A stretch of DNA of 64,000 nucleotides from an uncultured Planctomycetia bacterium (GTDB lineage Bacteria > Planctomycetota > MHYJ01 > WSZJ01), in assembly GCA_963706735.1 (NCBI GenBank), contig CAVPNQ010000072.1, forward strand, positions 4,932 through 68,931, in the 5' to 3' direction. The translations under genes were made by a program, and so were the position numbers. This document shows positions 41,251-59,092 of the stretch, one piece after another (position 1 is the first letter of the stretch; each line of letters starts with the position of its first letter). The notes below the pieces were generated by a model that did no database searches, was not told the DNA's origin, and saw only the letters and a program-made list of their open reading frames with translations.

Positions 41251-41805
41251 ATGAAGCTGATTGCGTTCTGCGGACCGTCGGATTCCGGCAAGACCTGGAT
41301 GATCGAGCGCCTGGTGCGGCTCTGGACCTCGCGTGGTCTCAAGGTCGGGGTCGTCAAGCACTGCTCCAAGGGCTACCAGCTGGACCGCGAGGGGAAAGAC
41401 TCGAGCCGCTTCTGGGAAGGAGGGGCCGCGGCCGTCGCGGTCGTCGGGCCCGGCGAGTGGGCGGTCCGCCGTCGCGAACCCGAGGCCGACCCGGTTCGCA
41501 TTGCCGAAGAGGCGTTTCCCGGAGTCGACGTGGCCATCGTGGAAGGATTCCGCGACGTCGCGATCCCGCGCGTCCGGGTCTTCGGGGCGAGCGAGCTGCC
41601 CTCATGCACGGACGCGGACCACGACATCATCGCCGCAGTGTCCCGCACCCCGGGTACGGCCCAGAACATTCCCATCTTCGCGCTGACCGACGCCGACGGG
41701 CTCTCGGACTTTCTCGCACACAGGCTCGGGCTGAATCTCGCCCTCTCCACGGATCCGGAGGCCGCCGTGCTGAGACACGAAAGAGCGGGCGCTCGTCCGG
41801 CTTAG
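41251..41805 (+). CDS. mobB: Molybdopterin-guanine dinucleotide biosynthesis adapter protein MobB
   Basis: P-loop GPSDSGKT, …VVKHC… and size 184 aa are typical for MobB. Confidence 0.8.
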   Translation: MKLIAFCGPSDSGKTWMIERLVRLWTSRGLKVGVVKHCSKGYQLDREGKDSSRFWEGGAAAVAVVGPGEWAVRRREPEADPVRIAEEAFPGVDVAIVEGFRDVAIPRVRVFGASELPSCTDADHDIIAAVSRTPGTAQNIPIFALTDADGLSDFLAHRLGLNLALSTDPEAAVLRHERAGARPA

Positions 41806-43436
41806 CGCAGTCCGCCGATGCCCGTCCGCGCCGCCGCGTTCTCGAGCGGAAGCGAGATCTTCACCTCGGTCCCCTTGCCCAGCTCGCTGTCGATCTCCAC
41901 CCGCCCGCCGTGCGCTTCGATCATCCTCTTCGAAATCGCCAGCCCGAGCCCCGTGCCGCGGGTCTTGGTCGTGAAGAACGGCGAGAAGAGTCGCGGAATG
42001 TGATCCGGGGCGATTCCGCTTCCGGTATCGCGGACCCGGATGACGGCCATTCCCGGGGTCTCCTTGATGTCCACGCGGATCTCGCCGCCGTGCGGCATCG
42101 CATCGACGGCATTCTGGAGGATGTTGAAGAAGACCTCCTGGACGAGCCTGGGGTCGGCCGAAAGCATGAGTGAAGCGGGTGTGTCGCAGCGAAGAGCAAT
42201 CGTGGACATCCGCTCCTGCTGCTTCAGGATCCGCGTGACCCTGCCGAGGAGCTCGACCAGGTCGGTCGTCTGCGGCTCCGGCGTCCACGGGCGTGCGAAG
42301 ACCAGCAGGTCCCGCACCGTCTCGTCGAGCCGCTGCACCTGCGCCAGGATTTCCGACACGATTTCGCGCCGCGGGTCCGTCGAGGGAATCGCGTCCGCGA
42401 TCACCTGGATCGCCCCGCTGATCCCCGCCAGCGGGTTCTTGATCTCGTGCGCCACCGTCGCCGCCAGCTCGCCCACCGCGGCCAGGCTCTGCGACCGCAC
42501 CAGGTCCGTTTGCAGCCGCTTCACCTTCGTCATGTCCCGCAGGATCGCGCTTCGGCCCACGATCTTTCCCGACTTGTCCCGGATGGCGGTGCTTGTGATG
42601 CTCATCGCCAGCCGGCGTCCGTCGCGGGAGACGCGGACCGTTTCGTAACCCTCGAGAAACCCCTCGCGTTCGACTTCCGTGCGGATGCGGCGCAACTCGC
42701 CCGCGTCGCGGAGCTCCTCCGGGATCAGCGCTTCGATCGGCTGGCCGATGATCTCGGTCGCCGGCCATCCGAACATCCGCTCGGCGCCGCGATTCCAGCT
42801 CCGGATCAGGTCGGACTGGTCCACCGTCACGATCGCGTCCGCCGAGTTCTCGAGGATGTTCTCCAGGTGCTCCTTGCTCTTGCGGAGCTCTTCGACGAGA
42901 AGCGACCGTTCGAGGGCGACAGAGATGTGTCCGGCGACGTTGCGTGTGAAAGTGGCGTGATCGGCGGTGTAGGCGTCGCGGTGGCGGGACGAGATGAAGA
43001 GCACGCCGAAGGGGTTGCCGCGGGCGATGAGGGGGAGGGAGAGGGAGGAGAGCATGCCTTCCCGGACGATGAGACGCGTGGCCTCGGAAGTGGGGTGGGC
43101 GCGGACGTAGGCGTCGAGGTCGGGGATGATGCGGGGTTCGCCGGTGCGAAGGAGCGGCTCGAGGCTGGAACCCCGGAGGCGCGCGCTGTACCCCTCGTGG
43201 AGGAGGATCGGGCCGTCGCTGCGGCAGGCGTGGATGGTGAGCGAGTCGCGCGCGGGATCGTAGACGGACACGGCCAGCCGGTTGCACGGCAGGTGGCCGC
43301 GCATCCGCGCATAGATGGAGTCGAGGATGTCCTGGAAGCCGCGGCCGGCGTTCAGGTCCTGGACGATTTCGTTGAGGATGTCGCTGCTCACGGCTCCCTG
43401 GTCAGCTATGGAGGCACTTCCGAGGAAGCAAGCCAC
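41802..43436 (-). CDS. GAF-PAS sensor histidine kinase
   Basis: N-terminal GAF-like region. PAS (…IVTVDQSDLIRSWNRGAERMFGW…). H-box VAHEIKNPL. HATPase_c N/G1/G2 boxes. Confidence 0.85.
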   Translation of the reverse strand: MACFLGSASIADQGAVSSDILNEIVQDLNAGRGFQDILDSIYARMRGHLPCNRLAVSVYDPARDSLTIHACRSDGPILLHEGYSARLRGSSLEPLLRTGEPRIIPDLDAYVRAHPTSEATRLIVREGMLSSLSLPLIARGNPFGVLFISSRHRDAYTADHATFTRNVAGHISVALERSLLVEELRKSKEHLENILENSADAIVTVDQSDLIRSWNRGAERMFGWPATEIIGQPIEALIPEELRDAGELRRIRTEVEREGFLEGYETVRVSRDGRRLAMSITSTAIRDKSGKIVGRSAILRDMTKVKRLQTDLVRSQSLAAVGELAATVAHEIKNPLAGISGAIQVIADAIPSTDPRREIVSEILAQVQRLDETVRDLLVFARPWTPEPQTTDLVELLGRVTRILKQQERMSTIALRCDTPASLMLSADPRLVQEVFFNILQNAVDAMPHGGEIRVDIKETPGMAVIRVRDTGSGIAPDHIPRLFSPFFTTKTRGTGLGLAISKRMIEAHGGRVEIDSELGKGTEVKISLPLENAAARTGIGGLR

Positions 43437-43682
43437 GGGCCGTAGCGCAAATCAGCGGGATGCGGCGTTCGTCCAGGTGCTCTGGGTCAATTCCCAACGA
43501 TTTCTGTCTAATCTCGCAGTGACCCGTGTGTCCGGGTTCCGCATTCCCCGGACTAAAGCGCATCCGGTGCGGGTTTCCGGGCATCTGTGGTAAAGATACG
43601 GTGGCAGGGGAATTGGAAGCAGCCGCAGTCAGGCGCGGTGAGGCGCGAGGATCAGTTGCCGCGCCGGGCGACGTGACAGGGC

Positions 43683-43724
43683 AAAAAAAAAGCGGAGTCG
43701 GCGCCCGCCACAGACGCCGACTCC
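43683..43724 (-). terminator. Rho-independent terminator of the oxidoreductase operon
   Basis: On the minus strand: stem ggagtcggcg, 11-nt loop, stem cgccgactcc, then T9. Begins 16 nt after the chaperone stop (43740). Confidence 0.8.
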
Positions 43725-43739
43725 TGAAGCGACCGTGGT

Positions 43740-44504
43740 CTACACACCGCAGTCGCTGCTTTCGTTTTCTTCGGGACCGTCTTCGGGCTCGGCAGCCGGT
43801 TCGGGCGGAATCGCAATCGGTTCCGCGCTGACTTCCCCCGGCGTCACTTCCAGACGGGAAGCATCAGATTGCAAAACAGAGGCCAGAAGCGCGCCCAAGG
43901 CGCGATGCAGGGTGTTAGGGGCCTTTTTCGCGAGAATTTCCCCAAACACTGGGCCCCATCGCCCAATGTGGTCCTTCAAGAACGCCCGCGCGGCCTCCAG
44001 CGTCCGTTCCGCGCCCTCCACTTCTCCACGCTCCAGCGCCACGAGCTGCTTCACCGCGAGAAAGTGCACGAATTCCAGCTCAAGCCAGGCATGGTCAGCC
44101 CGTTCTCCGGTTCCTCCGCGAACCTGCAGCCCGAACGCCCTGTAAAACGCAGTAACGTCCGCCAGGTCCTGGGTCTCCTGGAACGGATGGGCGCTGCCGT
44201 ATCGCGTCTCGTGCGGCGGGAACGTCTCGGAAATCGTGTGGCCGTACGTCGCGAGGTGCATCGACTCCATGCCCCCGTCCGTCAGCCCCTGCAGCACCGC
44301 CTTCACCTCCGCCAGTCTTCCTTTCACGCAGTCGCCAGCCTTCCCCCAGAGTTCCGCCGTGTCGGAATCAGGAAGCTCATTCCGAAGCGCTTCCGCCGTG
44401 CCAGCGCTCGGGTACGCGAAGGCGCGAGCAAGGAACCGGTAATACCCGGCGCGAACGAACGCAAGTTCCGAGTCCATCGTCAGTTCCGGAAGAGTGGCTG
44501 GCAT
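43740..44504 (-). CDS. TorD/NarJ-family redox-enzyme maturation chaperone with extended acidic C-terminus
   Basis: Start at MPATLPEL. …YRFLARAFAYP…LEFVHFLAV… matches the TorD/NarJ delta-subunit pattern. Lies 10 nt downstream of the beta subunit. Confidence 0.75.
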   Translation of the reverse strand: MPATLPELTMDSELAFVRAGYYRFLARAFAYPSAGTAEALRNELPDSDTAELWGKAGDCVKGRLAEVKAVLQGLTDGGMESMHLATYGHTISETFPPHETRYGSAHPFQETQDLADVTAFYRAFGLQVRGGTGERADHAWLELEFVHFLAVKQLVALERGEVEGAERTLEAARAFLKDHIGRWGPVFGEILAKKAPNTLHRALGALLASVLQSDASRLEVTPGEVSAEPIAIPPEPAAEPEDGPEENESSDCGV

Positions 44505-44514
44505 CCGTGTTCCC

Positions 44515-45789
44515 CTAGATGGAGTTGGCGTGCTTGTCGGGCCGGATGTGGAATGGCTCCTCAACTGCCGTCCGGAACAGCTCCTGCCGGTCCTTCCCGA
44601 AGGCGATAATCGTGTCGTTGAAGAGCTCAAATTTCTTCCCGCGGATGGTCGTTTCGAAGCGCTTCTCTCCCGGTTCGATCTCGTAGCTGTAGATGATCCG
44701 CTGGTCTTTGCGGAAGAGCTGGAGGACAGCGAGGAGTTCGCGGTTGGGGATGGTGTAGTTCTCGATCGCGTCGTCGACGCCCGGCCCGAACATCTGCTTC
44801 AGGTACTCGCGAGGAACCCACCGCGGCGGGATGTAGAAACCGTTGGGCTCCGTCCCGAACTGCGGGTAGAGCGGCAGGGCGACTTTTGCCACCTTGACGA
44901 GGTGGTAGAGAGGGCTCTTCTTGTTTTCCGTCCACGACCCGTCCTTCTCGACCTTCACGAGTCCCTGCAGGCGGATCTGGCCGACGCAGCTCGTCATGCA
45001 CCGCGTTTCCATCGGCACGCCGCCGCACTGGGGGTCCTTGCCCTCGATGCGCGGGAAGCAGGCCACGCACTTTTCCGAAGTCCGCGTCGAAGGCCGGTAC
45101 ATCGCCTTCTTGTAAGGGCACGCTTCGACGCACCGGCGGTACCCGCGGCAGCGTTCCTGGTCGATGAGCACGATCCCGTCTTCGGGACGCTTGTAGATCG
45201 CCTTGCGCGGACATGCCGCGAGGCAGCCGGGATAGGTGCAGTGGTTGCAGATGCGCTGGAGGTAGAAGAACCAGGTCTTGTGTTCGGGGAGCGAGGCGCC
45301 GTCCCTGGAGAGGCCGAACGGACCGCCCTCGTAGGGGGTCGCGTTGTCTTCGAAGATGTTCGGGGCGGTCCACTCGGACTCGGTGGGGAGGTACCCGAGG
45401 ACGCGCTGCTGCGAATCGGGATTCAGCGCCTTCTTTGCCGCTTCGAAGATCGTCATGCCCTTGTACTGGCCGTAGACGGCCCTGTCCGACTTCTTGCCCG
45501 CCCAAGCCATTTCCTCGCCGGCGCGGGCATGAGCCTGATCGAGGAGCTGGAGGATTTTCGAATCCCAGTTCTGCGGGTAGCCGCCGTAGGGTTTTGTCTC
45601 GACGTTGTTCCACCACATGAGTTCCTGGCCCTTGGAAAACGTCCAGGTGGACTTGCAGCTCATGGTGCACGTCTGGCACGCGATGCAGCGGTTCGTGTTG
45701 AACACGAACGCAAACTGGTGATCGGGGTGGTGCTCCTCGTACGGGTATTCCATCTGCCGCCCGAGTTGCCAGTTATAGACCTGGGACAT
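44515..45789 (-). CDS. Fe-S beta subunit of a type II DMSO-reductase-family enzyme (NarH/NxrB-like, 424 aa)
   Basis: MSQVYNWQLGRQMEYPYEE…FVFNTNRCIACQTCTMSCKSTW…WWNNVETKPYGGYP is the NarH/NxrB N-terminal signature. Multiple Cys ferredoxin motifs. The 424-aa length matches Nitrospira/anammox-type NxrB rather than the 512-aa NarH. Confidence 0.9.
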   Translation of the reverse strand: MSQVYNWQLGRQMEYPYEEHHPDHQFAFVFNTNRCIACQTCTMSCKSTWTFSKGQELMWWNNVETKPYGGYPQNWDSKILQLLDQAHARAGEEMAWAGKKSDRAVYGQYKGMTIFEAAKKALNPDSQQRVLGYLPTESEWTAPNIFEDNATPYEGGPFGLSRDGASLPEHKTWFFYLQRICNHCTYPGCLAACPRKAIYKRPEDGIVLIDQERCRGYRRCVEACPYKKAMYRPSTRTSEKCVACFPRIEGKDPQCGGVPMETRCMTSCVGQIRLQGLVKVEKDGSWTENKKSPLYHLVKVAKVALPLYPQFGTEPNGFYIPPRWVPREYLKQMFGPGVDDAIENYTIPNRELLAVLQLFRKDQRIIYSYEIEPGEKRFETTIRGKKFELFNDTIIAFGKDRQELFRTAVEEPFHIRPDKHANSI

Positions 45790-45802
45790 GCGTGAAGCCT
45801 CC

Positions 45803-46075
45803 TTAGTTGCCCGCCTGCGGAGACGGGCTCCACTCGCGGAGCACGTCGTCGATCACCCGTTCCACGAACTGTTGACCGTGCTGGGCCCAGACCCTGTGGG
45901 TGCCGGCGTAGAACGGGTCCTTGAAGAGCCGCACGAGGCGCTCCCTGTCGAACCCGTTCAGCAGGAACTCCTCGACGACCGCGCGGGTCATGTCTTCGTC
46001 CGCCTGCGGCCCGGCCGGGATCGCCATACCGACGAACTCCAGCGGGTCGTCCTGTTCGCTTTCTTTTTCCGGCAT
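45803..46075 (-). CDS. Small acidic hypothetical protein (90 aa) encoded between the alpha and beta subunits
   Basis: ORF with normal composition (MPEKESEQDDPLEFVGMAIPAG…FLLNGFDRERLVRLFKDPFY…). Tight 14-nt and 28-nt spacing to its neighbours. Confidence 0.5.
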   Translation of the reverse strand: MPEKESEQDDPLEFVGMAIPAGPQADEDMTRAVVEEFLLNGFDRERLVRLFKDPFYAGTHRVWAQHGQQFVERVIDDVLREWSPSPQAGN

Positions 46076-46103
46076 CGTTTCCTCCTGGTCCCGGGACGGT
46101 CGT

Positions 46104-49100
46104 CTAACCTCTGGTGACCTTGCCCTGCATGTACTTCTTCATGAAGTCGTTCTCGCCGCCTGGCGCGAACCCGCTGGCAGCCGGCGCCCACACGCCCACG
46201 CCGTTCAACCCGCCGTTTTCGGCCTTCGTAATCTTGACCAGCGTCTCCTTCGGCGTTGTGTTTACTGCGTGGTTGTCAGCTTCGCCGCCGAAGAGGAATC
46301 CCATGCGGGCCTTGGTCTTGTGGAAGAGCGAGTCGAGCTGGTGCATCGGCATGAGCCAGCCGCGTGTGACGGACTGCTGCGAGCCGTAACGGAAGCTCGA
46401 CTGGTAGCCGGTTCCCTCGGACTGCGCCCGTCCGTCTTCGCGCGACTCGTGCGCCTTGACCGACTTCTCCGTCGCAATGAAGGGCGCGTGTTTCATCATC
46501 ACGGCGCTATACGGGTAGGCGGCGTTGTACTTCGCCCGCAGCATGAGCCTCCCGACCTTGTAGTGCGGGTCATCCGGTTTCCACCCGATATACGGACGAT
46601 CCGCGGGATTCGCATCGACGTACACGTAGTCCCCGTCCGCGATCCCCATGTCCTTCGCAGCCGCCGGGTTGATGTGAATCTGGTGCTCACCCACCCCCGC
46701 CTGGCGCTTGTCGCGCCGGTACGGGTCGCCGAACTGGTTGTTCCAGATGAACTGCCAGTCCGTGACCTGCCACTGCGAGTGCGTCGAGTGCCGCGACTTC
46801 GGTGTAATGCAGTAGAACTTGAAGCCCGCTTCCCAGAGCGGGTTCTTCGTGTTCTTCACCTCGCTCCAAGGTTTCTTGATGTTGCGAACCTGCCGCTCCT
46901 CGACCCCCATGGCGTCCTCCGGGATGCCATAGGACTCCGGGCGGACCCAGGGGTTCGAACTCACGATCACGTTCGGCAGGTACGGCGTCGCTTCCGGCCC
47001 CTCGCGATGGACGATGAAGTTCTCGCCGTACTCGATGACCTCGTCCTCATCGTTGTACGACTGCAGCCGGCCCGTGGGGGTGTAGAAGGGGAGGTTGTCC
47101 TTGATCTGCTCATAGAACGGAACCCGCGGGTACGTCCGGAACAGGAAGAGCGCCGCCCCGGGTTCGCCGTATTTTCCGTCGTTGATGTCCTTGACCTTGT
47201 AGCCGCGCGTCGTCGTCGAGGCGTCCAGCAGGCGCTGGATATAGACCTCCGTCTTCCCCTCGTGCGTGAACTTCCAGAGATCCGTGAGACGCGGTTCCCC
47301 GATCAGCTCGCCGACGGCTTTCGAGGCATTCGCCAGGATCACCGGGTCGTCCATCGTGTCGTATACCGGCTTGATCCCGCGCCCCCAGATCTGCAGGAAC
47401 GGGTTCGAACACGACCCCGTCACCTCGTACTGCTGGAACTCCATCCAGCAGTTCGCCGCAAACACCAGGTCGCTGTACTCGACGCTCGAAGTCATCTCGA
47501 TGTCCGTCGAACAGATCATCTCGATCTTCGTGTTCGTCTTCATCAACATCTGGTAGGCCCACTTCGCGTTATTGAAGAGATTCACGTTGGTGAACCAGAG
47601 GAACTTGGTCGGCGTGGGCATGTGCGACTTCCCTGTGAAGCACTTGTGTCCCTTGCCGGGCGTCTCGACCAGGAGAGGCTTGTCGTCGTAGTTCCAGTAG
47701 GCCGGCTCTTCATCCTGTGTGAAGGCGTGGGCATGGATGTCTTTGCCGTCTGCGTTCTCGTCCAGGTTCAGGTGCCAGGGATCTTCCGCGACCCAGCCCT
47801 TGAAGCCGGGGCCTGTCCACGTGGAGCCCTGGAACAGCGCGGCCTTGTAGTTGCCGGCCCACGTGTGGGAACCGGCGCCCGGAAGACCGATGTTTCCCGT
47901 CAGCATGAGCGGCAGGTAGCTCGCCCGGTTCGCTTCCGTCGCGTGGAACCAGTGGTTGATTCCTTCACCCTGGTGGATCGCGACCGGCTTGATCGTCGCG
48001 ATGTCGTCCGTCAGCCGGCGGATCAGTTCCTTCGGGGCGCGCGTGATCTCGTGAACTGTGTCGAGGTCGTAGTCCTTCAGGTGGATGTTCTTGTAGAGGT
48101 CGAAAAGCGGACGAACGACGATTTCCTTCCCGTCCACCGTCTTCACCTTGAACGTGCCCTTGAGCGCCGCATCCAGGCCGAGGCTGTCGAAGAGCCCGCC
48201 GACGGCGTCCCGCGTCACCACCTTCGGCCCGTTCGTCTTCGTGTCCCAGACCATGAAGTCGCCGATGCGGTCCCGCTGTTCCTTCGTCATGCCGTGGATC
48301 TGGAAGGATGCCCCCGCGGACAGGTCCGGCGCCGCGTAGCCCTTGATCACGTCCTTCGCCTGCAGTCGCTTGAGGTTGTCCTCGCGCACGAGCAGGGGGA
48401 AATCCGTGAAGCGCTTCACGAAGTCCGCGTCGTATTTGTTCTCGTCCATCATGAGCTTCGTGATGCCGAGGAGGAGCGCCGTGTCGCTGTTCGGGCGGAT
48501 CGGGATCCAGTAGTCGGCCTTGGACGCCGGCGGCGAGTACTCCGGCGTGATGACGACGATTTTGGCGCCGCGCTCCATGCACTCCGTGAAGAAGTGATTG
48601 TCGGCGCGCTTGTTCTCGATGAGGTTCTTGCCCATCTGGATATGGAGCTTGGAGTACCGGAAATCGTTCAGGTCGCAGTCCGAGGCCTGAAGTCCGTGTA
48701 CGAACGGGTGGCCGGGGGCCTGGTCGCCGTGCCAGGTGTAGTTCGACCAGATGCGCGAGCCCTTCGCATCATGCTCCCCGACGCCGCGGATCTTGGCATC
48801 GGCGAGGGCGAGGCCCTGGCCGAAGCGGTACATGCCGTATTTGCCCATGACGCCGAGGAGGCCCATGCCGCCGCGGACCTTGCAGACGCGGGCGCCGGAA
48901 TTCTCGTGGTAGAGGAGCATTTCCTCGGGGTAGCCCTCGTCGACCAGGCGCTTGCGCCCCTGCTCCCCCGAGTACTTCTTCATGATGTGGACGACGCCCT
49001 TCGCCAGGTACTTGAACGCGTCGTCCCAGGCGATCTTCACGAGCTCGTCCGTCCCGCGCGAGTCGAACTTGTACTTCTTGTGGTTGTCGGGGGTGAGCTC

Positions 49101-49544
49101 GGGGAAGCCGTCGTCGGCCCACTGCTTCCACATTTTGCGGATCATGGGGTAGCGGAGGCGGTACGGGCCGTACATGCGGCGCTGCATCGTGAACCCGTTG
49201 GAGCAGCCACGCGGGTTCCAGTTGACCGTGGCCTTGTTGCCGTAGAGGTCGCCGACGCGCCCGCTGTCGTAGTTCTGCTCGCTGCGGAGCACGACGCCAT
49301 TGCGGACGTACGCTCTCATGCGGCACGAGTGCGTGCAGTTCGGGGAGCACACCCAGGCGAAGCTCGAGTCGTACCGATACTGTTCGCGGTACACCTCTTC
49401 CCAGTCGCGCGCCGGGTAGGCCGCCAGCGGGTCGACGTCGGGAAACGGTTCGAAAGCCCCGAGCCTCAGGCCGCCCGAGGCCAGCCACGCGGCGCTTCCC
49501 GCAATTCCTGCGGACTTCAGGAAGTCGCGACGGTTAATGGCCAT
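46104..49544 (-). CDS. Molybdopterin (bis-MGD) catalytic alpha subunit of a periplasmic type II DMSO-reductase-family enzyme (NxrA/NarG-like, 1146 aa from the Tat-signal Met)
   Basis: Twin-arginine signal MAINRRDFLKSAGIAGSAAWLASG. NarG/NxrA-like N-terminus …WEEVYREQYRYDSSFAWVCSPNCTHSCRMRAYVRNGVV… with a C-x3-C-x3-C FS0-type motif. Size matches Nitrospira/Kuenenia NxrA (~1146 aa). Confidence 0.9.
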   Translation of the reverse strand: MAINRRDFLKSAGIAGSAAWLASGGLRLGAFEPFPDVDPLAAYPARDWEEVYREQYRYDSSFAWVCSPNCTHSCRMRAYVRNGVVLRSEQNYDSGRVGDLYGNKATVNWNPRGCSNGFTMQRRMYGPYRLRYPMIRKMWKQWADDGFPELTPDNHKKYKFDSRGTDELVKIAWDDAFKYLAKGVVHIMKKYSGEQGRKRLVDEGYPEEMLLYHENSGARVCKVRGGMGLLGVMGKYGMYRFGQGLALADAKIRGVGEHDAKGSRIWSNYTWHGDQAPGHPFVHGLQASDCDLNDFRYSKLHIQMGKNLIENKRADNHFFTECMERGAKIVVITPEYSPPASKADYWIPIRPNSDTALLLGITKLMMDENKYDADFVKRFTDFPLLVREDNLKRLQAKDVIKGYAAPDLSAGASFQIHGMTKEQRDRIGDFMVWDTKTNGPKVVTRDAVGGLFDSLGLDAALKGTFKVKTVDGKEIVVRPLFDLYKNIHLKDYDLDTVHEITRAPKELIRRLTDDIATIKPVAIHQGEGINHWFHATEANRASYLPLMLTGNIGLPGAGSHTWAGNYKAALFQGSTWTGPGFKGWVAEDPWHLNLDENADGKDIHAHAFTQDEEPAYWNYDDKPLLVETPGKGHKCFTGKSHMPTPTKFLWFTNVNLFNNAKWAYQMLMKTNTKIEMICSTDIEMTSSVEYSDLVFAANCWMEFQQYEVTGSCSNPFLQIWGRGIKPVYDTMDDPVILANASKAVGELIGEPRLTDLWKFTHEGKTEVYIQRLLDASTTTRGYKVKDINDGKYGEPGAALFLFRTYPRVPFYEQIKDNLPFYTPTGRLQSYNDEDEVIEYGENFIVHREGPEATPYLPNVIVSSNPWVRPESYGIPEDAMGVEERQVRNIKKPWSEVKNTKNPLWEAGFKFYCITPKSRHSTHSQWQVTDWQFIWNNQFGDPYRRDKRQAGVGEHQIHINPAAAKDMGIADGDYVYVDANPADRPYIGWKPDDPHYKVGRLMLRAKYNAAYPYSAVMMKHAPFIATEKSVKAHESREDGRAQSEGTGYQSSFRYGSQQSVTRGWLMPMHQLDSLFHKTKARMGFLFGGEADNHAVNTTPKETLVKITKAENGGLNGVGVWAPAASGFAPGGENDFMKKYMQGKVTRG

Positions 49545-50517
49545 GAATGCCCTCCTGAACCAGGTTGGAAGAGCGGGTCGCCACGGTCGGCGCGAACCGC
49601 GTGCGGAAGACGTAGGAGTCGAGGCACTGGCGGCACGCGCCATCGGCCGTATTCCAGGTCGGGGAATCCGCCTGGACCATGGCGAGGGTGGTGGCGGGAA
49701 GAGCGGCGGGGTTCTCGTGCCACTCGAAAGTGGGGAAGCTGCAGAGCGGGCAGAGGGATCCCGGGCCGCGCGGGCTCTCGTCCTGCCGGATCCCCGAGAA
49801 ACGAAGGAGTTTCCTGGGATCGAGGGCCAGTTCGATGAGCTGCGGCCAGGTCGCCTCGGGTGTTTCCCAGAGCCGGGTCAGGATGCGGTCGCGAGTGGCA
49901 GGGGGAAAGCCAGGGTAATTCCGCATGACCATCGTGCCCCATTCCTCGAGCGTCGCCGCGCCGAGCTTTCCCGAACGGGCGATGGCGCCGGCGGCGACGA
50001 GGTTCCAGAGGAGGCGGAGACGGGCCCGGACGAGATTCTCTTCGGCTGGCCGAGAGGCGATCCGGCCGAGCGCGCGGTAGACGAAGGCGGGCCGGAGCAT
50101 GTCCTCGACGTGGCGGAGCTCGTGGCGCAGGAATCCGGCGAGCGCGACTGGATCGTCGAACCGCTGGACGCGGATGCGAATGCGAACGTGAGGCTTGCCT
50201 CCGTCGCGCACGAGAAGGTCTGCCTCCTCGTCCGTCGCCGCCGCGCCGCGGTCGAGAATCAGCTCGTCAATCTGCGGTGCAATCGACGGGTAATCGGCGA
50301 CGGCGGTCTCGATCGGCCGGGCCAGGCCAAGGTGCCGGAAGAAAACGGCGTGGGCGTCGCGGAAGCGCGCCTCGCGCTCGGTGCCCTGGAGCGAGTAGAT
50401 CGGGTCGGACACGGCGTGCAGGTCTCGGGACGACGAAGCGTCCCCGGCGGCTTCGCGGCGAAGCACCTCGCGCGCGACCGCTTCTTCGAGCAACTCGGGG
50501 GCGAATCGAAGTTCCAC
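49537..50517 (-). CDS. Hypothetical protein (327 aa) with C-terminal CxxC…CxxC zinc-ribbon, encoded between the gamma and alpha subunits
   Basis: …CPLCSFPTFEWHE…ACRQCLDSY…. Stop abuts the alpha start. Confidence 0.55.
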
Positions 50518-50529
50518 GTTTGATCTCCC

Positions 50530-52185
50530 TTATTTCAGGATGAGCCGATACCAGGTTGTGACGGACTTCTGGCCGGCACGGTCGCCCGCGGCGCCGTCCC
50601 ATACGGCGAAGGCCATCGGGATTTCCGTCCCCGCCTTCAAGGCGATGCAGCACGGGTCCGGCGGAGCGAAGGATCGGCCCATCTGCACCGTCCAGAGCCC
50701 TTCCTTCCAGGCGCCTTTGCCGGTGACCGACTGCTTGTCCGCCGCGAGGCTCGTGAGCGTGCCGAAGCCCGCCGCGACCGCGTCCTCGACGGGGGACTTG
50801 CGGTCGGGGTTGGAGAACGGATTGCCCGCGGCGCGCCCCGACTGGTACGCGGGGTCGTGGTTCGGCATCGCCGAAGGGTTGTTCCCCTTGTTCTCGTTCG
50901 TCCTGTCGCCCTTCTCGAACGGGTACATCTCCACCGACATCCCGGGGTGAATCCCCTCGACGTCCTGCCACTTCGCGAGGTCGATCTGCCAGTCCGCTTT
51001 CCACTGCCACAGGTTTACCGGCATCTTGGCCGAGCCCATCGTGACCGGCGTGTCGATCCCTTCGAGCGCAAACATCAGGGCGACGGCATCGCGGAAGTCC
51101 TCGGCGCGGAGCGGCGCGTGATTGTCGGCGCCGTCGAGCCAGGAGAGCTGGAACGCCACGGCGCTTCCGTCGTGCGCGGCCCGGACTTTCAGGAGGCGCG
51201 GCGCGGCGATGCGGCTGAAGAGCAGCTGGAGCGGCACCTCGACGGCCGGAATCGCGTCCCATGCGGGATCGGTCGGGTCCTTGGGAAGAGCCGCGACCTT
51301 CGTGGCGGGGAGCTGGCTTCCCGACGGAAGTGCGGCGGCGAAGTGCTTCGGCGCGTCGCCCGAGAGGCTCATGACGTAGTGAACGAGGCCCCAGCGTTCC
51401 TTGTCGGACATCTGGTCGGGGCCGTAAGCGGGCATCGGCGTGCCGGAGAGACCCGTGGCAAAGCGGAGGTAGACGTCCTTGGGGGTCGAGCCGCCGCGGA
51501 AGATACCCTGCGTGAAATCGTTCGGGCGGATCGGCTGGTCCGCGTCGTCCTTGAGATCGGCGGCCGAGGGGCCGTCAGCCCGGCCGGTTTCGCCGTGGCA
51601 CTTGACGCAGCTCATCTTGATGTACATGTCCTTGCCGATGGCGCGGGACTTGTCGTCATCGGCCGGCTCAGCGGGGACGGCGAGCGACTTGCCCTGGCCG
51701 CGCTCTTTGAAGTAGTTGTAGGGCGCGTCCATGTCCGGGTCCTGGAACTGGCTGAGATCCTTGATGTAGGCGATGAGCGCCTTGCGGTCGGCTTCGGGGA
51801 AGTGTCGCCAGGCCGGCATCGCTGTGCCCGGCATGCCGTTTACGAGAACGGCCATGATGTCTTCGTCGGTGGGGAGAGCCCCGCTCTCGGTTGAGCGGAT
51901 CTTGAACTTGCCTTTGGAGAAGTCGCGTGGGCGGGGCCAGAGAAGGTAGGCCGCCGTGCCGTCGCCGAGGCCCTTGAGCCCGTGGCAGACGGCGCAATTG
52001 GCCTCGAAGAGGAATTTGCCGGTGGCGTTCGCGTCGCCGCCCGGGTCGCCGCCGGCCCCATCACCACCGAGCGCCGACGGGACCGTTTTTTGCGGATCCC
52101 GAGGCTGGCAGGCGGACAGAGTGACGATGCAGAGAGCGCAGGCGGCGAAGGCCGCCAGTTTCCAGGCGTGAGTTCGACAGGGCAT
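50530..52185 (-). CDS. Lipoprotein diheme cytochrome c fused to an EB_dh-type heme-b domain (candidate gamma subunit of the oxidoreductase)
   Basis: Lipoprotein signal MPCRTHAWKLAAFAACALCIVTLSAC. Two CxxCH motifs (CAVCHG, CVKCHG). C-terminal ~250 aa resembles the ethylbenzene-dehydrogenase gamma / DOMON-like heme-b domain (…AFAVWDGAAGDRAGQKSVTTWYRL…). Confidence 0.75.
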   Translation of the reverse strand: MPCRTHAWKLAAFAACALCIVTLSACQPRDPQKTVPSALGGDGAGGDPGGDANATGKFLFEANCAVCHGLKGLGDGTAAYLLWPRPRDFSKGKFKIRSTESGALPTDEDIMAVLVNGMPGTAMPAWRHFPEADRKALIAYIKDLSQFQDPDMDAPYNYFKERGQGKSLAVPAEPADDDKSRAIGKDMYIKMSCVKCHGETGRADGPSAADLKDDADQPIRPNDFTQGIFRGGSTPKDVYLRFATGLSGTPMPAYGPDQMSDKERWGLVHYVMSLSGDAPKHFAAALPSGSQLPATKVAALPKDPTDPAWDAIPAVEVPLQLLFSRIAAPRLLKVRAAHDGSAVAFQLSWLDGADNHAPLRAEDFRDAVALMFALEGIDTPVTMGSAKMPVNLWQWKADWQIDLAKWQDVEGIHPGMSVEMYPFEKGDRTNENKGNNPSAMPNHDPAYQSGRAAGNPFSNPDRKSPVEDAVAAGFGTLTSLAADKQSVTGKGAWKEGLWTVQMGRSFAPPDPCCIALKAGTEIPMAFAVWDGAAGDRAGQKSVTTWYRLILK

Positions 52186-52246
52186 GCAGTGCCTCCTCGG
52201 GTAGTCCCTCGCGCCGCCGGGCGCGAACGGGACTCGAGCGCTGTGC

Positions 52247-52263
52247 GCAAACTTCGCACCCGC
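52247..52263 (-). promoter_or_regulatory. Possible sigma54-type promoter for the oxidoreductase operon
   Basis: Minus strand gGGtgcgaagtTTGCg shows GG/GC at the 12-nt spacing. The start codon is ~62 nt downstream. Weak -24 region. Confidence 0.3.
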
Positions 52264-52333
52264 TGAAATCATCGAATTCGAATAACGGACAGGGAAGTCC
52301 GTGGCAATTCGCGCTGGAGGTGCGCGAATTTAC

Positions 52334-52346
52334 TTAATGTCATTAA
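52334..52346. promoter_or_regulatory. AT-rich perfect palindrome TTAATG-T-CATTAA, flanked by GCGAATTCGC palindromes, in the divergent control region
   Basis: Read directly. The only strongly AT-rich patch in the region. Lies between the two divergent operons. Confidence 0.4.
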
Positions 52347-52668
52347 CTAAAGCGCTGTGCGAATTCGCGGCGCTTCGCGGAAATAACCAGCCTGTCCCCG
52401 ACCCCAACGCAGCCTTTCAAAAAAAAATAGCCCGGCGCCCCCGACCGGCGGGATCGGAAGCGCAGGGCCGGGCGGGAGGTCCCGCCCACGACTTTCCCCG
52501 GCCCGGAGGCCAGGGAGGGGTACCGAGGGCAATCCCGACGCCAACGCAAATCCAGTTCCCCGGCTCCTACGCTTGAAGGCGCTCTCAATACTGGGAAATT
52601 TTCCGCGCCCACTGCGGACAGCTCCATGCCGTTCTTCTCGAATCCACCTTTCTGTCGCGTGTGACCCG

Positions 52669-52733: not shown

Positions 52734-53501
52734 ATGCCACTCAAGTTCCTCGCTGTATCCCTCGCACTGCTCGCGGCCGCCGGATGCGGCGCCCCGGCTT
52801 CCCAAGGCGGTCCTGCTTCGCCGCAAGGTTCGAAAGGCGGCGACTTCCTGTGCGATGGAAGTGCCGGGGGGAGTGCGATCAAGGGCAAGATCACCTTCGA
52901 GGGTCCCGTGCCCGAGCCCAGGAAACTGGTTGTGGACAGCGACGCCCTCTGCGCTTCCCTCCACAAGGACGGACTGCTGGCCGAGGACATCAAGGTGAAG
53001 GACGGCGCGCTCGCGAACGTCTTCCTGTGGGTCAAGAAGGGCGTGACGGGGAGCTATCCCGCGCCCGCGGAAGCAAAGATCCTCACCCAGAAGGCCTGCC
53101 GTTACGAACCGCACGTCCTCGGCGTGCAGGTCGGGCAGCCGCTCGCGATCCACAACGAAGACGAGACGATGCACAACGTGCATTCGCTTCCGAAGCTGAA
53201 CGAAGAATTCAACTTTGCGCAGACGAAGAAGGGCGACGTCGCGACGAAGAAGTTCAGCTCGGCGGAGACGATGGTGAAGTTCAAGTGCGACGCGCACGGC
53301 TGGATGAGCGCCTGGGTCGGGGTGGTGAAGCATCCGTTTTATGCGGTGAGCGCCGAGGACGGGACGTTCGAGATCAAGGGGTTGCCGGCGGGCGAGTACG
53401 TGCTGGGCGCGTGGCACGAGAAGTTCAGGGCGCAGGAACTCACGCTCAAGGTCGGGGACAAGGACACGCAGACCGCGAACTTCACGTTCAAGGCCGAGTA
53501 G
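52734..53501 (+). CDS. Cupredoxin-like (amicyanin-type C-x2-H-x2-M) copper lipoprotein, copy 1
   Basis: Lipobox LAAAGCG. Ligand set H(NVH)…38 aa…CDAHGWM. C-terminal beta-sandwich extension. 50-55% identity to copy 2. Confidence 0.7.
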   Translation: MPLKFLAVSLALLAAAGCGAPASQGGPASPQGSKGGDFLCDGSAGGSAIKGKITFEGPVPEPRKLVVDSDALCASLHKDGLLAEDIKVKDGALANVFLWVKKGVTGSYPAPAEAKILTQKACRYEPHVLGVQVGQPLAIHNEDETMHNVHSLPKLNEEFNFAQTKKGDVATKKFSSAETMVKFKCDAHGWMSAWVGVVKHPFYAVSAEDGTFEIKGLPAGEYVLGAWHEKFRAQELTLKVGDKDTQTANFTFKAE

Positions 53502-53555: not shown

Positions 53556-53852
53556 ATGTCGGGACACGCGCAGTCGGCGGCGCCTGCAGCGCACGGAGCG
53601 TCCAGCTACAAGACCTACTGGTTTGCGTGGCTGCTGCTCCTCATCCTGACGGTGCTCATGGTGCAGATTCACAACAAGGCCCTGTTGCTCACCGGCATCG
53701 GGATCAAGTCCACGATCATCTGCCTGTGGTTCATGCACCTGAAGCACGAGTCGAAGCTGCTTCTGTTCAGCGTGGCGCTCGGATTCGGGTTCGCCGTGTT
53801 CCTGTTCTTCCTGATCCAATTTGACGTGAAGGTCCTGACGGGGATCGCGTAG
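53556..53852 (+). CDS. Prokaryotic cytochrome c oxidase subunit IV family protein, copy 1 (98 aa)
   Basis: …YKTYWFAWLLLLILTV…FMHLKHE…. Two TM helices. Paralog of the gene at 59093. Confidence 0.7.
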   Translation: MSGHAQSAAPAAHGASSYKTYWFAWLLLLILTVLMVQIHNKALLLTGIGIKSTIICLWFMHLKHESKLLLFSVALGFGFAVFLFFLIQFDVKVLTGIA

Positions 53853-54205: not shown

Positions 54206-55009
54206 ATGCTTAAGACACCTCTTCTCGTGGCCTCGATTGTCCTGAGCGCTCTGCTCGTGGCGGGCTGCGGCGACAGCAAGAAGCCCGATGCTAACGGCAA
54301 TACCGGTGCGGGTGGCGGCGGTGGCGAAGGCGGCGGCGGCGGCGGCGCGGTGAAGACGGCCGACATGGCCAATGGCGCGGTCGTCAAGGGCGTCATCAAG
54401 TTCGACGGCACTCCTCCGACCGAGAAGGCCCTCGGCATCGACGGCGACGACTTCTGCAAGGGCCAGCACCCGGAAGGCCTCAAGACCGAGTACTACAAGG
54501 TCAAGGACGGCAAGGTCGCCAACTGCCTCGTCTACGTGAAGGATGGCCTCTCCGGCAAGTACGCGCCGGTCAACCCCAGCCCGGTGATCGACCAGAAGGG
54601 CTGCCAGTACCTCCCGCACGTCATCGGCGTCGTTGCGGGCCAGGACGTCATCATCAAGAACAGTGACTCGATCGCGCACAACATCCATGCGCTTCCCAAG
54701 AAGAGCCAGGAGTTCAACTTCGCGCAGACGAAGGCCGGGGAAGAGACGAAGAAGTCGTTCTCGTCGGCGGAAGTGCCTGTGAAAGTGAAGTGCGACATTC
54801 ACGGCTGGATGGGCTGCGTGGTCGGGGTGTTCAACCACCCGTTCTTCGCGGTGACGGGGGAAGACGGCTCGTTTGAGATCAAGGGTCTTCCGGCCGGGAA
54901 GTACAAGCTCGAGGTCTACCACGAGAAGTTCGGGACGCAGACGGTGGATGTCGAGGTGAAGGAGAAGGAGACGAAGTCCGTCGATTTCCCGGCCCTGAAG
55001 AGCGAATAA
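54206..55009 (+). CDS. Cupredoxin-like copper lipoprotein, copy 2
   Basis: Lipobox LVAGCG. Gly-rich linker. H(NIH)…CDIHGWM ligand set. Confidence 0.7.
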   Translation: MLKTPLLVASIVLSALLVAGCGDSKKPDANGNTGAGGGGGEGGGGGGAVKTADMANGAVVKGVIKFDGTPPTEKALGIDGDDFCKGQHPEGLKTEYYKVKDGKVANCLVYVKDGLSGKYAPVNPSPVIDQKGCQYLPHVIGVVAGQDVIIKNSDSIAHNIHALPKKSQEFNFAQTKAGEETKKSFSSAEVPVKVKCDIHGWMGCVVGVFNHPFFAVTGEDGSFEIKGLPAGKYKLEVYHEKFGTQTVDVEVKEKETKSVDFPALKSE

Positions 55010-55022: not shown

Positions 55023-55859
55023 ATGCACCGACGCAACAGGGGAGCGGTGACGCCGGTATTGCTGGCGTCGTTCATGCTGGTTTTCACCGTGATCACGGTG
55101 TGGATGTGGTTTGCCCGGGAGTGGCGGCCCGCCCAGATGAGCGTGCACTCCAAGGGCGTGGACAAGATGATCACGTACATCGTCGGCGCCGCGGGGTTCA
55201 TCTTCATTGTCGGGCACCTGGTGCTGTCGAAGTTCATCATGAACCGTTCGAAGCCGGACGGGCAGCCCTGGAAGCCGATGTCCCACGGGGCCGAGACGTT
55301 CTTCACGGTGGCGCCGGTGATCCTCATGGTGCTGGTCTCGGAAATCGGGACGATCGTGATCGGCGCGCCGGTGTGGAACGAGGTGTACACGCACGAGGCG
55401 GGCGACGTTGAGGTTGAGATCACGGGGATGCAGTACGAATGGGTGGCCCGCTATGCCGGGGCAGACGGCAAGTGGGGGAAGCGGGTGGTCGAGAAATTCG
55501 ACTCCGCGGACAATCCGCTCGCGCTGGACCCGAAGGACAAGGACGGGAAGGACGACATCGTGAGCCGCGGCGTGGTGGTCCTGCCCGCGGGCAAGCCGGT
55601 CTGGTTCAACATCCGCTCGTGGGACGTGCTGCACAGCTTCAACATCCCCGAGTTCCGCACGAAGCAGGATGCGGTGCCGGGCATCTACACGCACACGCGG
55701 GTCACGCCGCTCAAGCCGACCGAGAACGGGAAACCGATCGAGGTTGCCTGCGCGGAGATCTGCAACTTCGGCCACTACAAGATGAAGGCGAAGGTGATCG
55801 TGAAGACGCCCGAGGATTTCGCGAAGTGGCTGGAAACGACAACGAAGTTCGGCGACTAA
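55023..55859 (+). CDS. coxB: Heme-copper oxidase subunit II (CuA; no fused cytochrome c domain)
   Basis: Two N-terminal TM helices. …WDVLHSFNIPEFRTKQDAVPG…. CuA motif ACAEICNFGHYKM. Confidence 0.9.
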   Translation: MHRRNRGAVTPVLLASFMLVFTVITVWMWFAREWRPAQMSVHSKGVDKMITYIVGAAGFIFIVGHLVLSKFIMNRSKPDGQPWKPMSHGAETFFTVAPVILMVLVSEIGTIVIGAPVWNEVYTHEAGDVEVEITGMQYEWVARYAGADGKWGKRVVEKFDSADNPLALDPKDKDGKDDIVSRGVVVLPAGKPVWFNIRSWDVLHSFNIPEFRTKQDAVPGIYTHTRVTPLKPTENGKPIEVACAEICNFGHYKMKAKVIVKTPEDFAKWLETTTKFGD

Positions 55860-57771: not shown

Positions 57772-58323
57772 ATGGCCCAGGCCTGGAAAGAGGACGGTTG
57801 GGAACGCGCGGTCGCCGCCGAGCGGCGCATCGACACGTTCCAGACCCTCACTTTCTTCATGGTCGGCGGCGCCATCATGCTGTTCACCTGCTTCACCGCT
57901 TCCTACCTCGTCCGGCGCGAAAGCGCCGACTGGGTCAAGCTCGCCCTTCCCCCCATCCTCTGGGTGAATACCGCCGTGATCGTCCTGAGCAGCCTGACGC
58001 TCGAGGCCGCACGGCTCGTCAAGCCCGCCGCGTCGCGCCGCTGGGTCGGCGTCACGATCGGGCTCGGCGTGGCGTTCGTCGCCGGGCAGGTCCTGGCGTG
58101 GCGGGAGCTGGCCCTGAAGGGCGTCTTCGCCACGACGGATCCGCACGCGTCATTCTTCTACATGTTGACGGGGGTCCACGCGGTGCACATCGCCGCGGGA
58201 ATCGCCGTGCTCGCGTACGCGTTCAGGCGCGCCGGAAGGGCCCCCCTGGGGCTCTGCGCGGCGTGGTGGCATGTCGTGGGGGCCGCGTGGGTCTGGGTGG
58301 CGGTCCTGATCTCGGTCCTCTAG
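57772..58323 (+). CDS. Cytochrome oxidase subunit III-like protein (short, 183 aa)
   Basis: …FYMLTGVHAVHIAAG…WWHVVGAAWVWV… matches COX3-family motifs. Confidence 0.7.
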   Translation: MAQAWKEDGWERAVAAERRIDTFQTLTFFMVGGAIMLFTCFTASYLVRRESADWVKLALPPILWVNTAVIVLSSLTLEAARLVKPAASRRWVGVTIGLGVAFVAGQVLAWRELALKGVFATTDPHASFFYMLTGVHAVHIAAGIAVLAYAFRRAGRAPLGLCAAWWHVVGAAWVWVAVLISVL

Positions 58324-58462
58324 AAAGTGACAGGCCGGGGGAGATCGAGTGTGCCCCTGGAGAAGAGATCCTTCGACTCGCTTCGCTCGCTCAGGATAAG
58401 CCGGGCCTGAGTGGGGCTTGTGGAAGTCGAAGGGCGGTTCCCGGCCCGGCTTAGGAGCGGCG

Positions 58463-59080
58463 ATGAGCACGACGGCAGTGGCGGAACATCATCACGATGC
58501 GGCGGACGAATCCGAACCCGGGTTTTACGGGACGTCGTGGCAGAAGCTGATGATGTGGTGGTTCATCATCGGCGACGCGATCCTGTTCGGGTCGTTCCTG
58601 GCCGCCTACGGGTTCGCGCGGATGTCGGTCACCAACTGGCCGGATCCCGCGAAGGTCTTCAGCATGAACTTCATCACCGTGATGACCTTCGTGCTGATCA
58701 CGTCGAGCGCCACGATGGCGACCGCGGTCGGCGCTTCCCGCGCCGGCAATCACAAGATGGCGTGCAACTTCACGATCCTCACCGCGATCGGCGGCCTGGT
58801 GTTCCTCGGGATGCAGGTCGTGGAGTGGTCGCACATGATCCACGACGGCGCCCGCCTGAACACGAACCCCTGGGGCGCGCCCGCCTTCTCGGCGTTCTTC
58901 TTCACCATCACCGGCTTCCACGGCTCGCACGTCCTCTCGGGCGTCGTCATCCTGCTCATCACGGCCATCAACGCCCTTCGCGGAAAATCCGGACCCGAAG
59001 GCGTCGAGCTCGCCGGGCTATACTGGCACTTCGTCGACCTCGTCTGGGTCTTCGTCTTCGGCACCTTTTACCTGCTCTAG
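58463..59080 (+). CDS. ctaE: Cytochrome c oxidase subunit III
   Basis: AGGAG ribosome-binding site. …FFFTITGFHGSHVLSG…LYWHFVDLVWVFVF…. Confidence 0.85.
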   Translation: MSTTAVAEHHHDAADESEPGFYGTSWQKLMMWWFIIGDAILFGSFLAAYGFARMSVTNWPDPAKVFSMNFITVMTFVLITSSATMATAVGASRAGNHKMACNFTILTAIGGLVFLGMQVVEWSHMIHDGARLNTNPWGAPAFSAFFFTITGFHGSHVLSGVVILLITAINALRGKSGPEGVELAGLYWHFVDLVWVFVFGTFYLL

Positions 59081-59092
59081 GAACCGCCACCC

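Follow-up and report, generated by a model that had tools for sequence, protein, structure and literature searches.

Nitrite oxidoreductase (NXR) makes nearly all nitrate on Earth, and its companion proteins and physiological direction are poorly understood outside a few cultured groups. Here, we describe an NXR-type operon in a 64-kb stretch of DNA (the "window") from an uncultured Planctomycetia bacterium (assembly GCA_963706735.1, contig CAVPNQ010000072.1). The work follows up an initial annotation, made from the sequence alone, that had drawn attention to a run of six genes for a molybdoenzyme and its companions. All coordinates are those of the whole window; the operon, its terminator and the spacer elements are on the minus strand, and genes around them carry a strand label where it bears on the arrangement.

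The Operon and Its Boundaries

Six tightly packed open reading frames (ORFs) occupy 43740-52185, each of them exactly where, and in the order in which, the initial annotation had placed it. The first gene in transcription order (50530..52185) encodes the gamma subunit, an "alternative NxrC" of 551 aa that bears a lipoprotein signal and combines a diheme cytochrome c with an EB_dh heme-b domain. It is followed by p327 (49534..50517), a conserved 327-aa and presumably cytoplasmic protein with an HExxH motif and a C-terminal zinc ribbon, and by NxrA (46104..49544), the molybdopterin-containing catalytic alpha subunit of 1146 aa, recognized by its twin-arginine translocation (Tat) signal MAINRRDFLK and its match to Kuenenia NXR-A. 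Next come p90 (45803..46075), a conserved 90-aa protein, and NxrB (44515..45789), the 424-aa iron-sulfur beta subunit, which matches Kuenenia NXR-B. A cytoplasmic, NxrD-like chaperone of the TorD/NarJ family closes the series (43740..44504; Pfam Nitrate_red_del, 4.7e-15). The genes for p327 and alpha overlap by 11 nt, and the overlap is identical in the related locus L001.

Gene calls deserve care here, as the window is 67% GC and long spurious ORFs are abundant in it. Five of the six genes have an in-frame GC content at third codon positions (GC3) of 0.81-0.87, which marks them as real genes; the chaperone gene falls outside the thresholds of the GC3 filter. The "clean terminator" reported earlier was also recovered: an intrinsic terminator at 43694..43724, with a 14-bp stem (10 GC pairs), a 3-nt loop and T8, lies 15 nt past the chaperone stop codon. 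We considered and rejected a mobile element or island, as the flanks are housekeeping genes (pst, ispDF, cysS, rlmN) and the composition is even.

The Catalytic Subunit and the Identity of the Enzyme

When alpha was compared with all Protein Data Bank (PDB) sequences, the best match was NXR-A of Kuenenia stuttgartiensis (Ks; 7B04_B), with 1774 bits over residues 1-1143; along its full length, alpha is ~65% identical to anammox NXR-A. The next-best families were perchlorate reductase PcrA (196 bits), ethylbenzene dehydrogenase EbdA (166 bits) and Escherichia coli NarG (124 bits). By these scores alpha lies firmly inside the nitrogen (NXR) clade, and not in a non-nitrogen clade of the kind that the initial annotation had named as grounds for giving up its proposal. 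The Tat motif RRDFLK stands at the alpha N-terminus, MAINRRDFLKSAG, and its R6 is invariant in an alignment of 20 alpha sequences (A1). Scores and signal together bear out the earlier assignment to the periplasmic Nitrospira/anammox type rather than to cytoplasmic NarGHI, and scans of the operon and its flanks with Pfam and NCBIfam found no NarI-like gene in the operon. Membership of the archaeal-type pNar group, which had been offered as an alternative, appears unlikely given the ~65% identity to anammox NXR-A.

The functional residues are in place. In the Kuenenia enzyme, Chicano et al. 2021 (PMC8387239) identified Asp275 as the Mo ligand, Asn70 as the substrate-positioning residue, and Met155 and Lys305 as the ligands of heme b. 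Using the residue offset from the PDB alignment of alpha, D274 corresponds to KsAsp275 and N69 to KsAsn70, and both are invariant in A1 (20/20). The motif for the FS0 cluster reads C66-x3-C70-x3-C74, and the fourth ligand, C114, is likewise invariant in A1. Both the Asp ligand and a four-ligand FS0, which the initial annotation had singled out for checking, are thus present.

At one FS0 position, window NxrA has Cys70 where Kuenenia NXR-A has Asp71, which places it outside the Asp-FS0 subgroup. The structure paper states that NXRs and nitrate reductases (NARs) use 3Cys/1Asp or 3Cys/1His at FS0 (PMC8387239). The motif could be read in 117 of the top relatives, and the residue here is Cys in 55 of them and Asp in 62. 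A neighbor-joining tree built from 82 alpha sequences places the window in a subclade that is Cys throughout and that also contains other Planctomycetota metagenome-assembled genomes (MAGs), Archangiaceae, Rokubacteria, a Bacteroidetes MAG, Neomarinimicrobiota and Nitrospinaceae MAGs. Asp is found in all anammox, all Omnitrophota and nearly all Chloroflexota sequences of the tree. Outside the window's subclade there are only two Cys sequences, from a Dehalococcoidia MAG and an unclassified bacterium (UCB2), which form a separate pair.

Could the enzyme belong to the wider type II dimethyl sulfoxide (DMSO) reductase family and act on another substrate, such as chlorate, perchlorate, selenate or dimethylsulfide, or in ethylbenzene/steroid-type hydroxylation? 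The NCBIfam models for that family (TIGR03479/03478/03477/03482) do match alpha, beta, gamma and the chaperone, and the EB_dh domain of gamma also occurs in Ebd, Ser, Clr and Ddh enzymes. All four matches are, however, far below the curated cut-offs: ~354 versus 985 bits for alpha, 255 versus 481 for beta, 115 versus 170 for gamma and 65 versus 152 for the chaperone. The same applies to narG (159 versus 1084 bits) and narH (182 versus 524), and the Ebd models too score far below cut-off. The NXR clade is simply not covered by the type II DMSO reductase, NarG/NarH and Ebd models. Set against the score for NXR-A, the 124-196 bits for PcrA, EbdA and NarG led us to reject an Ebd/Pcr/Ser-type enzyme on score ratios, and with the full-length identity to anammox NXR-A and the retained substrate Asn and Mo Asp, they make any other substrate highly improbable.

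The Beta and Gamma Subunits and the Chaperone

Beta matches Kuenenia NXR-B (7B04_A) over its full length with 616 bits and has the N-terminus VYNWQLGR...WWNNVETKPYGGYP, which the initial annotation had read as matching the periplasmic Nitrospira/anammox type (or an archaeal-style pNar). Its 15 Cys residues fall in a 4+4+3+4 pattern that is kept in 66-67 of 67 relatives and fits three [4Fe-4S] clusters and one [3Fe-4S] cluster.

The fusion of a lipoprotein diheme cytochrome c to an EB_dh domain, also part of the earlier description, is confirmed. Gamma contains two CxxCH motifs and matches Pfam Cytochrom_C in two stretches and EB_dh (9e-27). Its N-terminal half scores 184 bits with the Kuenenia diheme cytochrome c 6H5L_B, and its C-terminal half 106-109 bits with Kuenenia NXR-C (7B04_C); opposite the KsNXR-C heme-b ligands Met155 and Lys305, gamma has Met and Lys, respectively. 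The likely start is MPCRTHAW..., and the lipobox is LSAC (...IVTLSAC), with IAAC or FSGC in the closest relatives. Pfam and NCBIfam scans found no quinol-oxidizing membrane subunit in the operon.

For the chaperone, the Pfam Nitrate_red_del match agrees with the TorD/NarJ-like label given before; the NCBIfam type II DMSO reductase chaperone model gives 8e-18, below its cut-off.

Taken together, the operon almost certainly encodes an NXR-family enzyme. The NXR-type assignment is well supported because alpha, beta and gamma match NXR-A, NXR-B and NXR-C, and because the Tat signal, the Mo-ligand Asp, the substrate Asn, the 15 beta Cys and the heme-b Met/Lys pair are all present.

How Widespread Is the Gene Set?

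The initial annotation had called the composition of the operon "non-canonical" and the operon "not a described operon type". This claim is unsupported, because the six-gene set recurs across phyla and because its companions were listed by Lücker et al. 2013 (PMC3578206). A scan with alpha of one genome per GTDB species showed that at least 598 species encode a relative; among the best 80 loci, identity ranges from 62 to 84% and more than a dozen phyla are represented. To these we added one locus from the Hainich aquifer, and searched the resulting 81 loci by tblastn with the window proteins.

A p327 homologue is present in 50 of the 81 loci (directly upstream of alpha in 27) and a chaperone homologue in 69. 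Homologues of p90 were found in 64 loci and lie between alpha and beta in 63/63 where both were found. A fused diheme-c/EB_dh gamma (>80% coverage) occurs in 38/81, and every one of these 38 has two CxxCH motifs. All six genes stand together in at least 26 of the 81 loci, from many phyla, and the true number may be higher, since many contigs are cut. One Nitrospinaceae MAG (L082) has the same six genes in the order ZnF-A-p87-B-TorD-cytc/EB_dh, and in a groundwater Planctomycetota MAG, at 70% identity, gene order is exactly that of the window. The anammox Brocadia and Kuenenia loci keep p327, the chaperone, cupredoxins and a separate copy of the fused gamma; p90 was not detected in them by tblastn.

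Lücker et al. had described the companions conserved among Nitrospina, Nitrospira and Kuenenia: besides an alternative NxrC in which there are two heme-c sites, these are a TorD-like chaperone, cytochromes c, two proteins resembling cupredoxins and a putative zinc-finger protein (PMC3578206). The gene set is, in other words, the usual one for a widespread enzyme family. As a side observation, a second and distant alpha/beta pair (27-29% identity) is present in one Chloroflexia genome at L071 20470-23439, ~5 kb downstream of where the NXR-type operon of that genome ends.

The Two Unnamed Companions

Neither p327 nor p90 has a Pfam or NCBIfam match. Our p327 is the "putative zinc finger protein" of NXR clusters. 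It has two conserved motifs, a zincin-like RHExxHxxD and a zinc ribbon CPLC...CRQC (CPLC...CxxC), and both are kept in the anammox homologues; the initial annotation had noted the Zn ribbon, to which the HExxH motif can now be added. The AlphaFold model of p327 is confident (predicted local distance difference test score, 86), and its structural similarity to metallopeptidases is weak.

The AlphaFold2 model of p90 has a confident four-helix core and a disordered N-terminus with an invariant DP motif; a structure search returned no structural relative. An exhaustive HMMER search yields a p90 family of 415 representative clusters at 50% identity, and all 150 members among the matches listed are 66-186 aa long. 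Word-indexed homologue searches gave 14 matches for p327 and 4 for p90; the families become visible only with tblastn on the loci and exhaustive HMMER. Profile searches of the two proteins against PDB sequences returned only spurious designed-repeat matches, or none.

In GC-rich DNA so full of long spurious ORFs, it is worthwhile asking whether two ORFs that match no curated family are merely chance frames. Their GC3 exceeds 0.8 in frame, however, and their homologues occur across phyla, at fixed positions and with conserved motifs, in the numbers given above. The size of the p90 family and the confident cores of both models point the same way. We therefore reject chance reading frames on the strength of conservation, and regard their probability as negligible.

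No signal peptide was found on either, and this, together with the position of their genes, is the basis for our guess that they act in the cytoplasm on NxrA/NxrB before Tat export.

The Divergent Spacer and Probable Regulation

A spacer of 548 bp separates the operon from plus-strand cupredoxin and cox genes. When three genomes (window, L001 and L084) are compared, three blocks of it prove nearly invariant, and the rest has diverged.

The block nearest the operon contains a candidate sigma54 (-24/-12) promoter, gGGtgC-GAAGT-TTGC (GGGTGCGAAGTTTGC; 52247..52261), with the spacing GG-N10-GC and an exact TTGC, ~60 nt before the ATG. L001 and L084 read cGGCgC-ACCAT-TTGC at the same position. The candidate was picked by eye and by cross-genome conservation. 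Its -24 hexamer matches three of six consensus bases in the window, and an NtrC-type regulator is encoded 17 kb away. A sigma54 consensus search allowing two mismatches or fewer found no site upstream of the operon, and across the window it gave 25 matches versus 18 expected, no more than chance; a scan for sigma70-like sites found none in the region upstream of the operon.

The second block is AT-rich (TTAGTTAATGACATTAAGTAAA; 52329..52350) within an otherwise GC-rich, diverged spacer, and is possibly a bending site of the integration host factor type. The third is a GC-rich element at 52419..52487, in which a perfect palindrome of 18 bp (GGGCGGGA-CC-TCCCGCCC) is joined by another hairpin and a T-run, with ~60 nt near-identical in the three genomes. 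There is one copy in the window, and it has no Rfam match; an Rfam search of 43000-54500 returned nothing credible. An activator-binding site is one possible role, and a terminator-like or small-RNA element another.

The "possible sigma54-type promoter" of the initial annotation thus gains a GG-N10-GC element conserved in three genomes and loses the backing of the consensus search. As the spacer layout is reminiscent of a sigma54 promoter with an activator site and a bending site, we consider the suggestion plausible and unproven. Transcription would then probably be sigma54-dependent and under a GAF-PAS kinase and an NtrC-type regulator.

The Oxidase Operon and Other Neighbors

Across the spacer, the plus-strand genes begin with cupredoxin-like lipoprotein 1 (52734..53501, (+)), which has an H...C-x2-H-x2-M motif (HNVH...CDAHGWM), the lipobox AAGC and a C-terminal CarboxypepD_reg domain; its Cupredoxin_1 and Copper-bind matches are sub-threshold. 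Its homologues adjoin NXR genes in 19 of the 81 loci, those of Brocadia and Kuenenia included. Cupredoxin-like lipoprotein 2 (54206..55009, (+)) is built alike, with HNIH...CDIHGWM, the lipobox VAGC and a C-terminal CarboxypepD_reg domain, a sub-threshold Copper-bind match (E 0.011) and a weak match to the blue copper protein 5FC9. Between the two lies a small COX4_pro-like membrane protein (53556..53852, (+); Pfam COX4_pro 4.6e-5, below cut-off), an extra copy that is not found at this position in L001 or L084. Those two loci have a single cupredoxin gene where the window has two (52734-55009), and the window pair is therefore a local duplication.

The oxidase itself follows. Cytochrome c oxidase subunit II (55023..55859, (+); Pfam COX2) has an intact CuA motif, H...CAEICNFGHYKM. 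Subunit I is a heme-copper oxidase of the A1 type (56009..57769, (+); Pfam COX1 1.4e-131, GHPEV motif) that starts with TTG after a GGGAGAG ribosome-binding site; its N-terminal tail, before the first transmembrane helix, is histidine-rich (THTHGSDASHTHDDHGHGHGDGHGHDHH; 56009-56100). A COX3-like protein and COX3 and COX4_pro oxidase subunits complete the set (57772..59374, (+); Pfam COX3 5e-16, COX4_pro 2.9e-7), among them a 196-aa protein with a weak COX3 match.

On the other side, directly downstream of the nxr operon, lies a cytoplasmic GAF-PAS histidine kinase (41802..43436, minus strand; Pfam GAF, PAS, HisKA, HATPase_c), at the same position in L001 and L084. MobB, for molybdopterin guanine dinucleotide synthesis (41251..41805, (+); Pfam MobB 2e-28), is likewise syntenic in L001 and L084. 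The domain scan also located an FNT channel (35340-36191). The neighborhood sketched in the initial annotation (FNT channel, mobB, and a heme-copper oxidase with cupredoxin donors) was accordingly all found, with the reservation that the cupredoxin matches are sub-threshold. A protoglobin-sensor histidine kinase and then three tandem-domain universal stress protein (Usp) genes fill 36451-40560, in synteny with a Hainich MAG; this suggests an oxygen- or redox-responsive regulon beside nxr/cox. Farther out are the NtrC-type sigma54 activator and the housekeeping genes that make up the rest of the window. A long minus-strand ORF at 59683-63207, in a stretch of 71% GC, has a Ser/Thr protein kinase domain and tetratricopeptide repeats, and synteny with related MAGs ends there.

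The divergent nxr/cox arrangement is found in four contigs, the window and its relatives L001, L084 and L085; the relatives comprise the Hainich MAG, GCA_009773755.1 and one further read-set contig, which keep the GAF-PAS kinase, MobB and Usp genes too.

Comparison with Known Systems

The closest characterized system is the Kuenenia NXR-ABC complex (PDB 7B04, PMC8387239), which resembles the window enzyme in full-length alpha and beta and in the heme-b domain of gamma. The two also have in common Tat export, the Mo-ligand Asp, the substrate Asn, four Fe-S clusters in beta and a Met/Lys-ligated heme b, and both come with a zinc-finger protein, a TorD-like chaperone and cupredoxin companions. 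They differ in FS0, which is 3Cys/1Asp in Kuenenia and all-Cys here, and in gamma, which is soluble and heme-b-only in Kuenenia, whereas here it is fused to a diheme cytochrome c and lipid-anchored. The 90-aa gene between A and B has been detected only on our side of this comparison. No NXR-T gene is annotated in the window, where no search was aimed at NXR-T, and there is no anammoxosome context. Finally, Kuenenia has a 15-gene cluster, in contrast to the compact six-gene operon with an adjoining aerobic oxidase described here.

With the set from Nitrospina gracilis, Nitrospira defluvii and Kuenenia (PMC3578206), the window shares NxrA, NxrB, the two-heme-c alternative NxrC, the TorD-like chaperone, the zinc-finger protein and two cupredoxin-like proteins. 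What its cluster lacks is a separate heme-b-only NxrC, a bd-like oxidase and a multicopper oxidase; the terminal oxidase next to the window operon is of the aa3 type (A1), and that of the Nitrospina/Nitrospira cluster is bd-like. The Nitrospinaceae MAG L082 also has an all-Cys FS0, but its fused gamma gene is last, whereas in the window it is first.

NarGHI, PcrAB, EbdABC, SerABC and ClrABC likewise combine a Mo-bis(molybdopterin guanine dinucleotide) (Mo-bisMGD) alpha subunit carrying FS0 with a four-cluster beta subunit and a NarJ/TorD chaperone, and Ebd, Ser and Clr have an EB_dh gamma. Their distance is plain from the low alpha scores of NarGHI and PcrAB/EbdABC. NarG, moreover, lacks a Tat signal, has His at FS0 and works with the membrane subunit NarI, in contrast to the Tat signal and the absence of a NarI-like gene here.

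NXR-type genes are already known from oxygen-reductase-bearing MAGs of non-anammox Planctomycetota (PMC10732223) and from many groundwater phyla (PMC9562985). Like the window enzyme, the Nxr-type enzymes of such MAGs (PMC10732223, PMC9562985, PMC11009272) are poorly annotated as "molybdopterin oxidoreductase", show strong similarity to Kuenenia NxrA, co-occur with oxygen reductases, are of unknown direction and have been proposed as potential novel nitrite oxidizers. The window lineage differs from them in its direct, conserved physical linkage of nxr to cupredoxin/cox. Our literature search found no earlier description of this particular lineage.

Proposed Electron Route and Direction of Catalysis

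The reading that we favor, by a modest preference, is that of a periplasmic nitrite:nitrate oxidoreductase, complete with its maturation factors, that works as an oxidative module. NxrA would be loaded with Mo-bisMGD and FS0 in the cytoplasm, aided by the TorD-like chaperone and probably also by p327 and p90. The Tat system would then export NxrA, carrying along NxrB with its four Fe-S clusters, and the AB dimer would dock on the lipid-anchored gamma in the periplasm. Electrons may pass from the Met/Lys-ligated heme b of gamma to its two c hemes, and these would exchange them with soluble or lipid-anchored carriers, for which the two cupredoxin lipoproteins across the divergent spacer are candidates.

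In this lineage the likely use would be to oxidize nitrite to nitrate, with electrons passing from Mo through FS0-FS4, heme b, the c hemes and a cupredoxin to the CuA of the A1-type oxidase and on to O2. A role as carrier to the terminal oxidase has been suggested for cytochrome c or cupredoxins (PMC8387239, PMC3578206). Nitrite oxidation with O2 is supported by the grouping with Nitrospinaceae sequences and by the fact that nxr is linked, in a conserved manner, to cupredoxins and a CuA oxidase. An argument from NXR and an A1-type oxidase has likewise been made for Ca. Nitrosediminicolota, a proposed new nitrite-oxidizing phylum (PMC11009272).

Several points weigh against this reading. As the initial annotation rightly cautioned, sequence cannot reveal in which direction the reaction runs, nitrite oxidation or nitrate reduction. 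In vitro, KsNXR works both ways and reduces nitrate ~25 times faster than it oxidizes nitrite (PMC8387239), and Nitrospira can run NXR in reverse according to work cited in PMC10839748. Many hosts of the family (Omnitrophota, Anaerolineae, Elusimicrobia) appear to be anaerobic, and the three Usp genes and the protoglobin kinase nearby suggest a low-oxygen regulon. Oxidase adjacency is confined to a narrow lineage, being absent in the next relatives L086 and L083 and in 80 of the 81 loci. The window holds nothing on CO2 fixation or reverse electron transport. Our alpha tree is indicative only, because it is midpoint-rooted without support values and without cultured Nitrospira/Nitrospina sequences, and the cytoplasmic maturation role of p327 and p90 leans on gene position and the missing signal peptide.

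The enzyme is in any case expected to be reversible, and nitrate reduction under hypoxia is possible. A less probable alternative, which we nevertheless take seriously, is that the same enzyme serves mainly in dissimilatory periplasmic nitrate reduction. At low oxygen, electrons would then flow from the quinol pool through a bc-type complex and a cytochrome c or cupredoxin to the c hemes of gamma, and the oxidase would merely be co-located. The faster reductive rate of KsNXR fits this, as do the flanking Usp genes, protoglobin histidine kinase and FNT nitrite channel, the frequency of the family in likely anaerobes and the rarity of oxidase adjacency. It has also been argued that phylogeny alone cannot separate NXR from NAR, and enzymes of this kind from outside Nitrospinia were judged likely nitrate reductases (PMC10839748). 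On the other hand, the operon has no quinol dehydrogenase subunit, and in four contigs it shares a conserved divergent spacer with an A1-type oxidase of low affinity, which suggests that it is regulated together with aerobic respiration. Nitrospinaceae MAGs, moreover, are among the nearest named relatives from outside Planctomycetota.

Nitrite oxidation thus keeps our slight preference. A bolder version of it, which we offer tentatively and regard as rather unlikely, is that the lineage formed by the window, the Hainich groundwater MAG and GCA_009773755.1 consists of unrecognized aerobic nitrite oxidizers. These would have a co-regulated module of lipid-anchored, all-Cys-FS0 NXR, cupredoxin lipoprotein and aa3-type oxidase, with p327 and p90 as obligatory NXR maturation factors.

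Significance

Uncultured NXR carriers are already numerous, and this locus adds one more to them. What is particular to it is modest: a compact operon, an all-Cys FS0, a lipid-anchored gamma, a conserved nxr/cox spacer and two uncharacterized companion families. Even so, several of these features lend themselves to use. Six genes with one promoter and one terminator could serve as a minimal set for heterologous expression, and p327 and p90 are two conserved, unnamed families that become candidate assembly factors. If their role in maturation is obligatory, it would explain the difficulty of producing NXR heterologously. The natural Cys-for-Asp variant of FS0 can be used to test FS0 tuning against catalytic bias. 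The link of nxr to a cupredoxin and aa3-oxidase operon, finally, offers an argument, open to testing, that a planctomycete oxidizes nitrite aerobically and, if this is confirmed, a phylum-level host would be added to the nitrite oxidizers.

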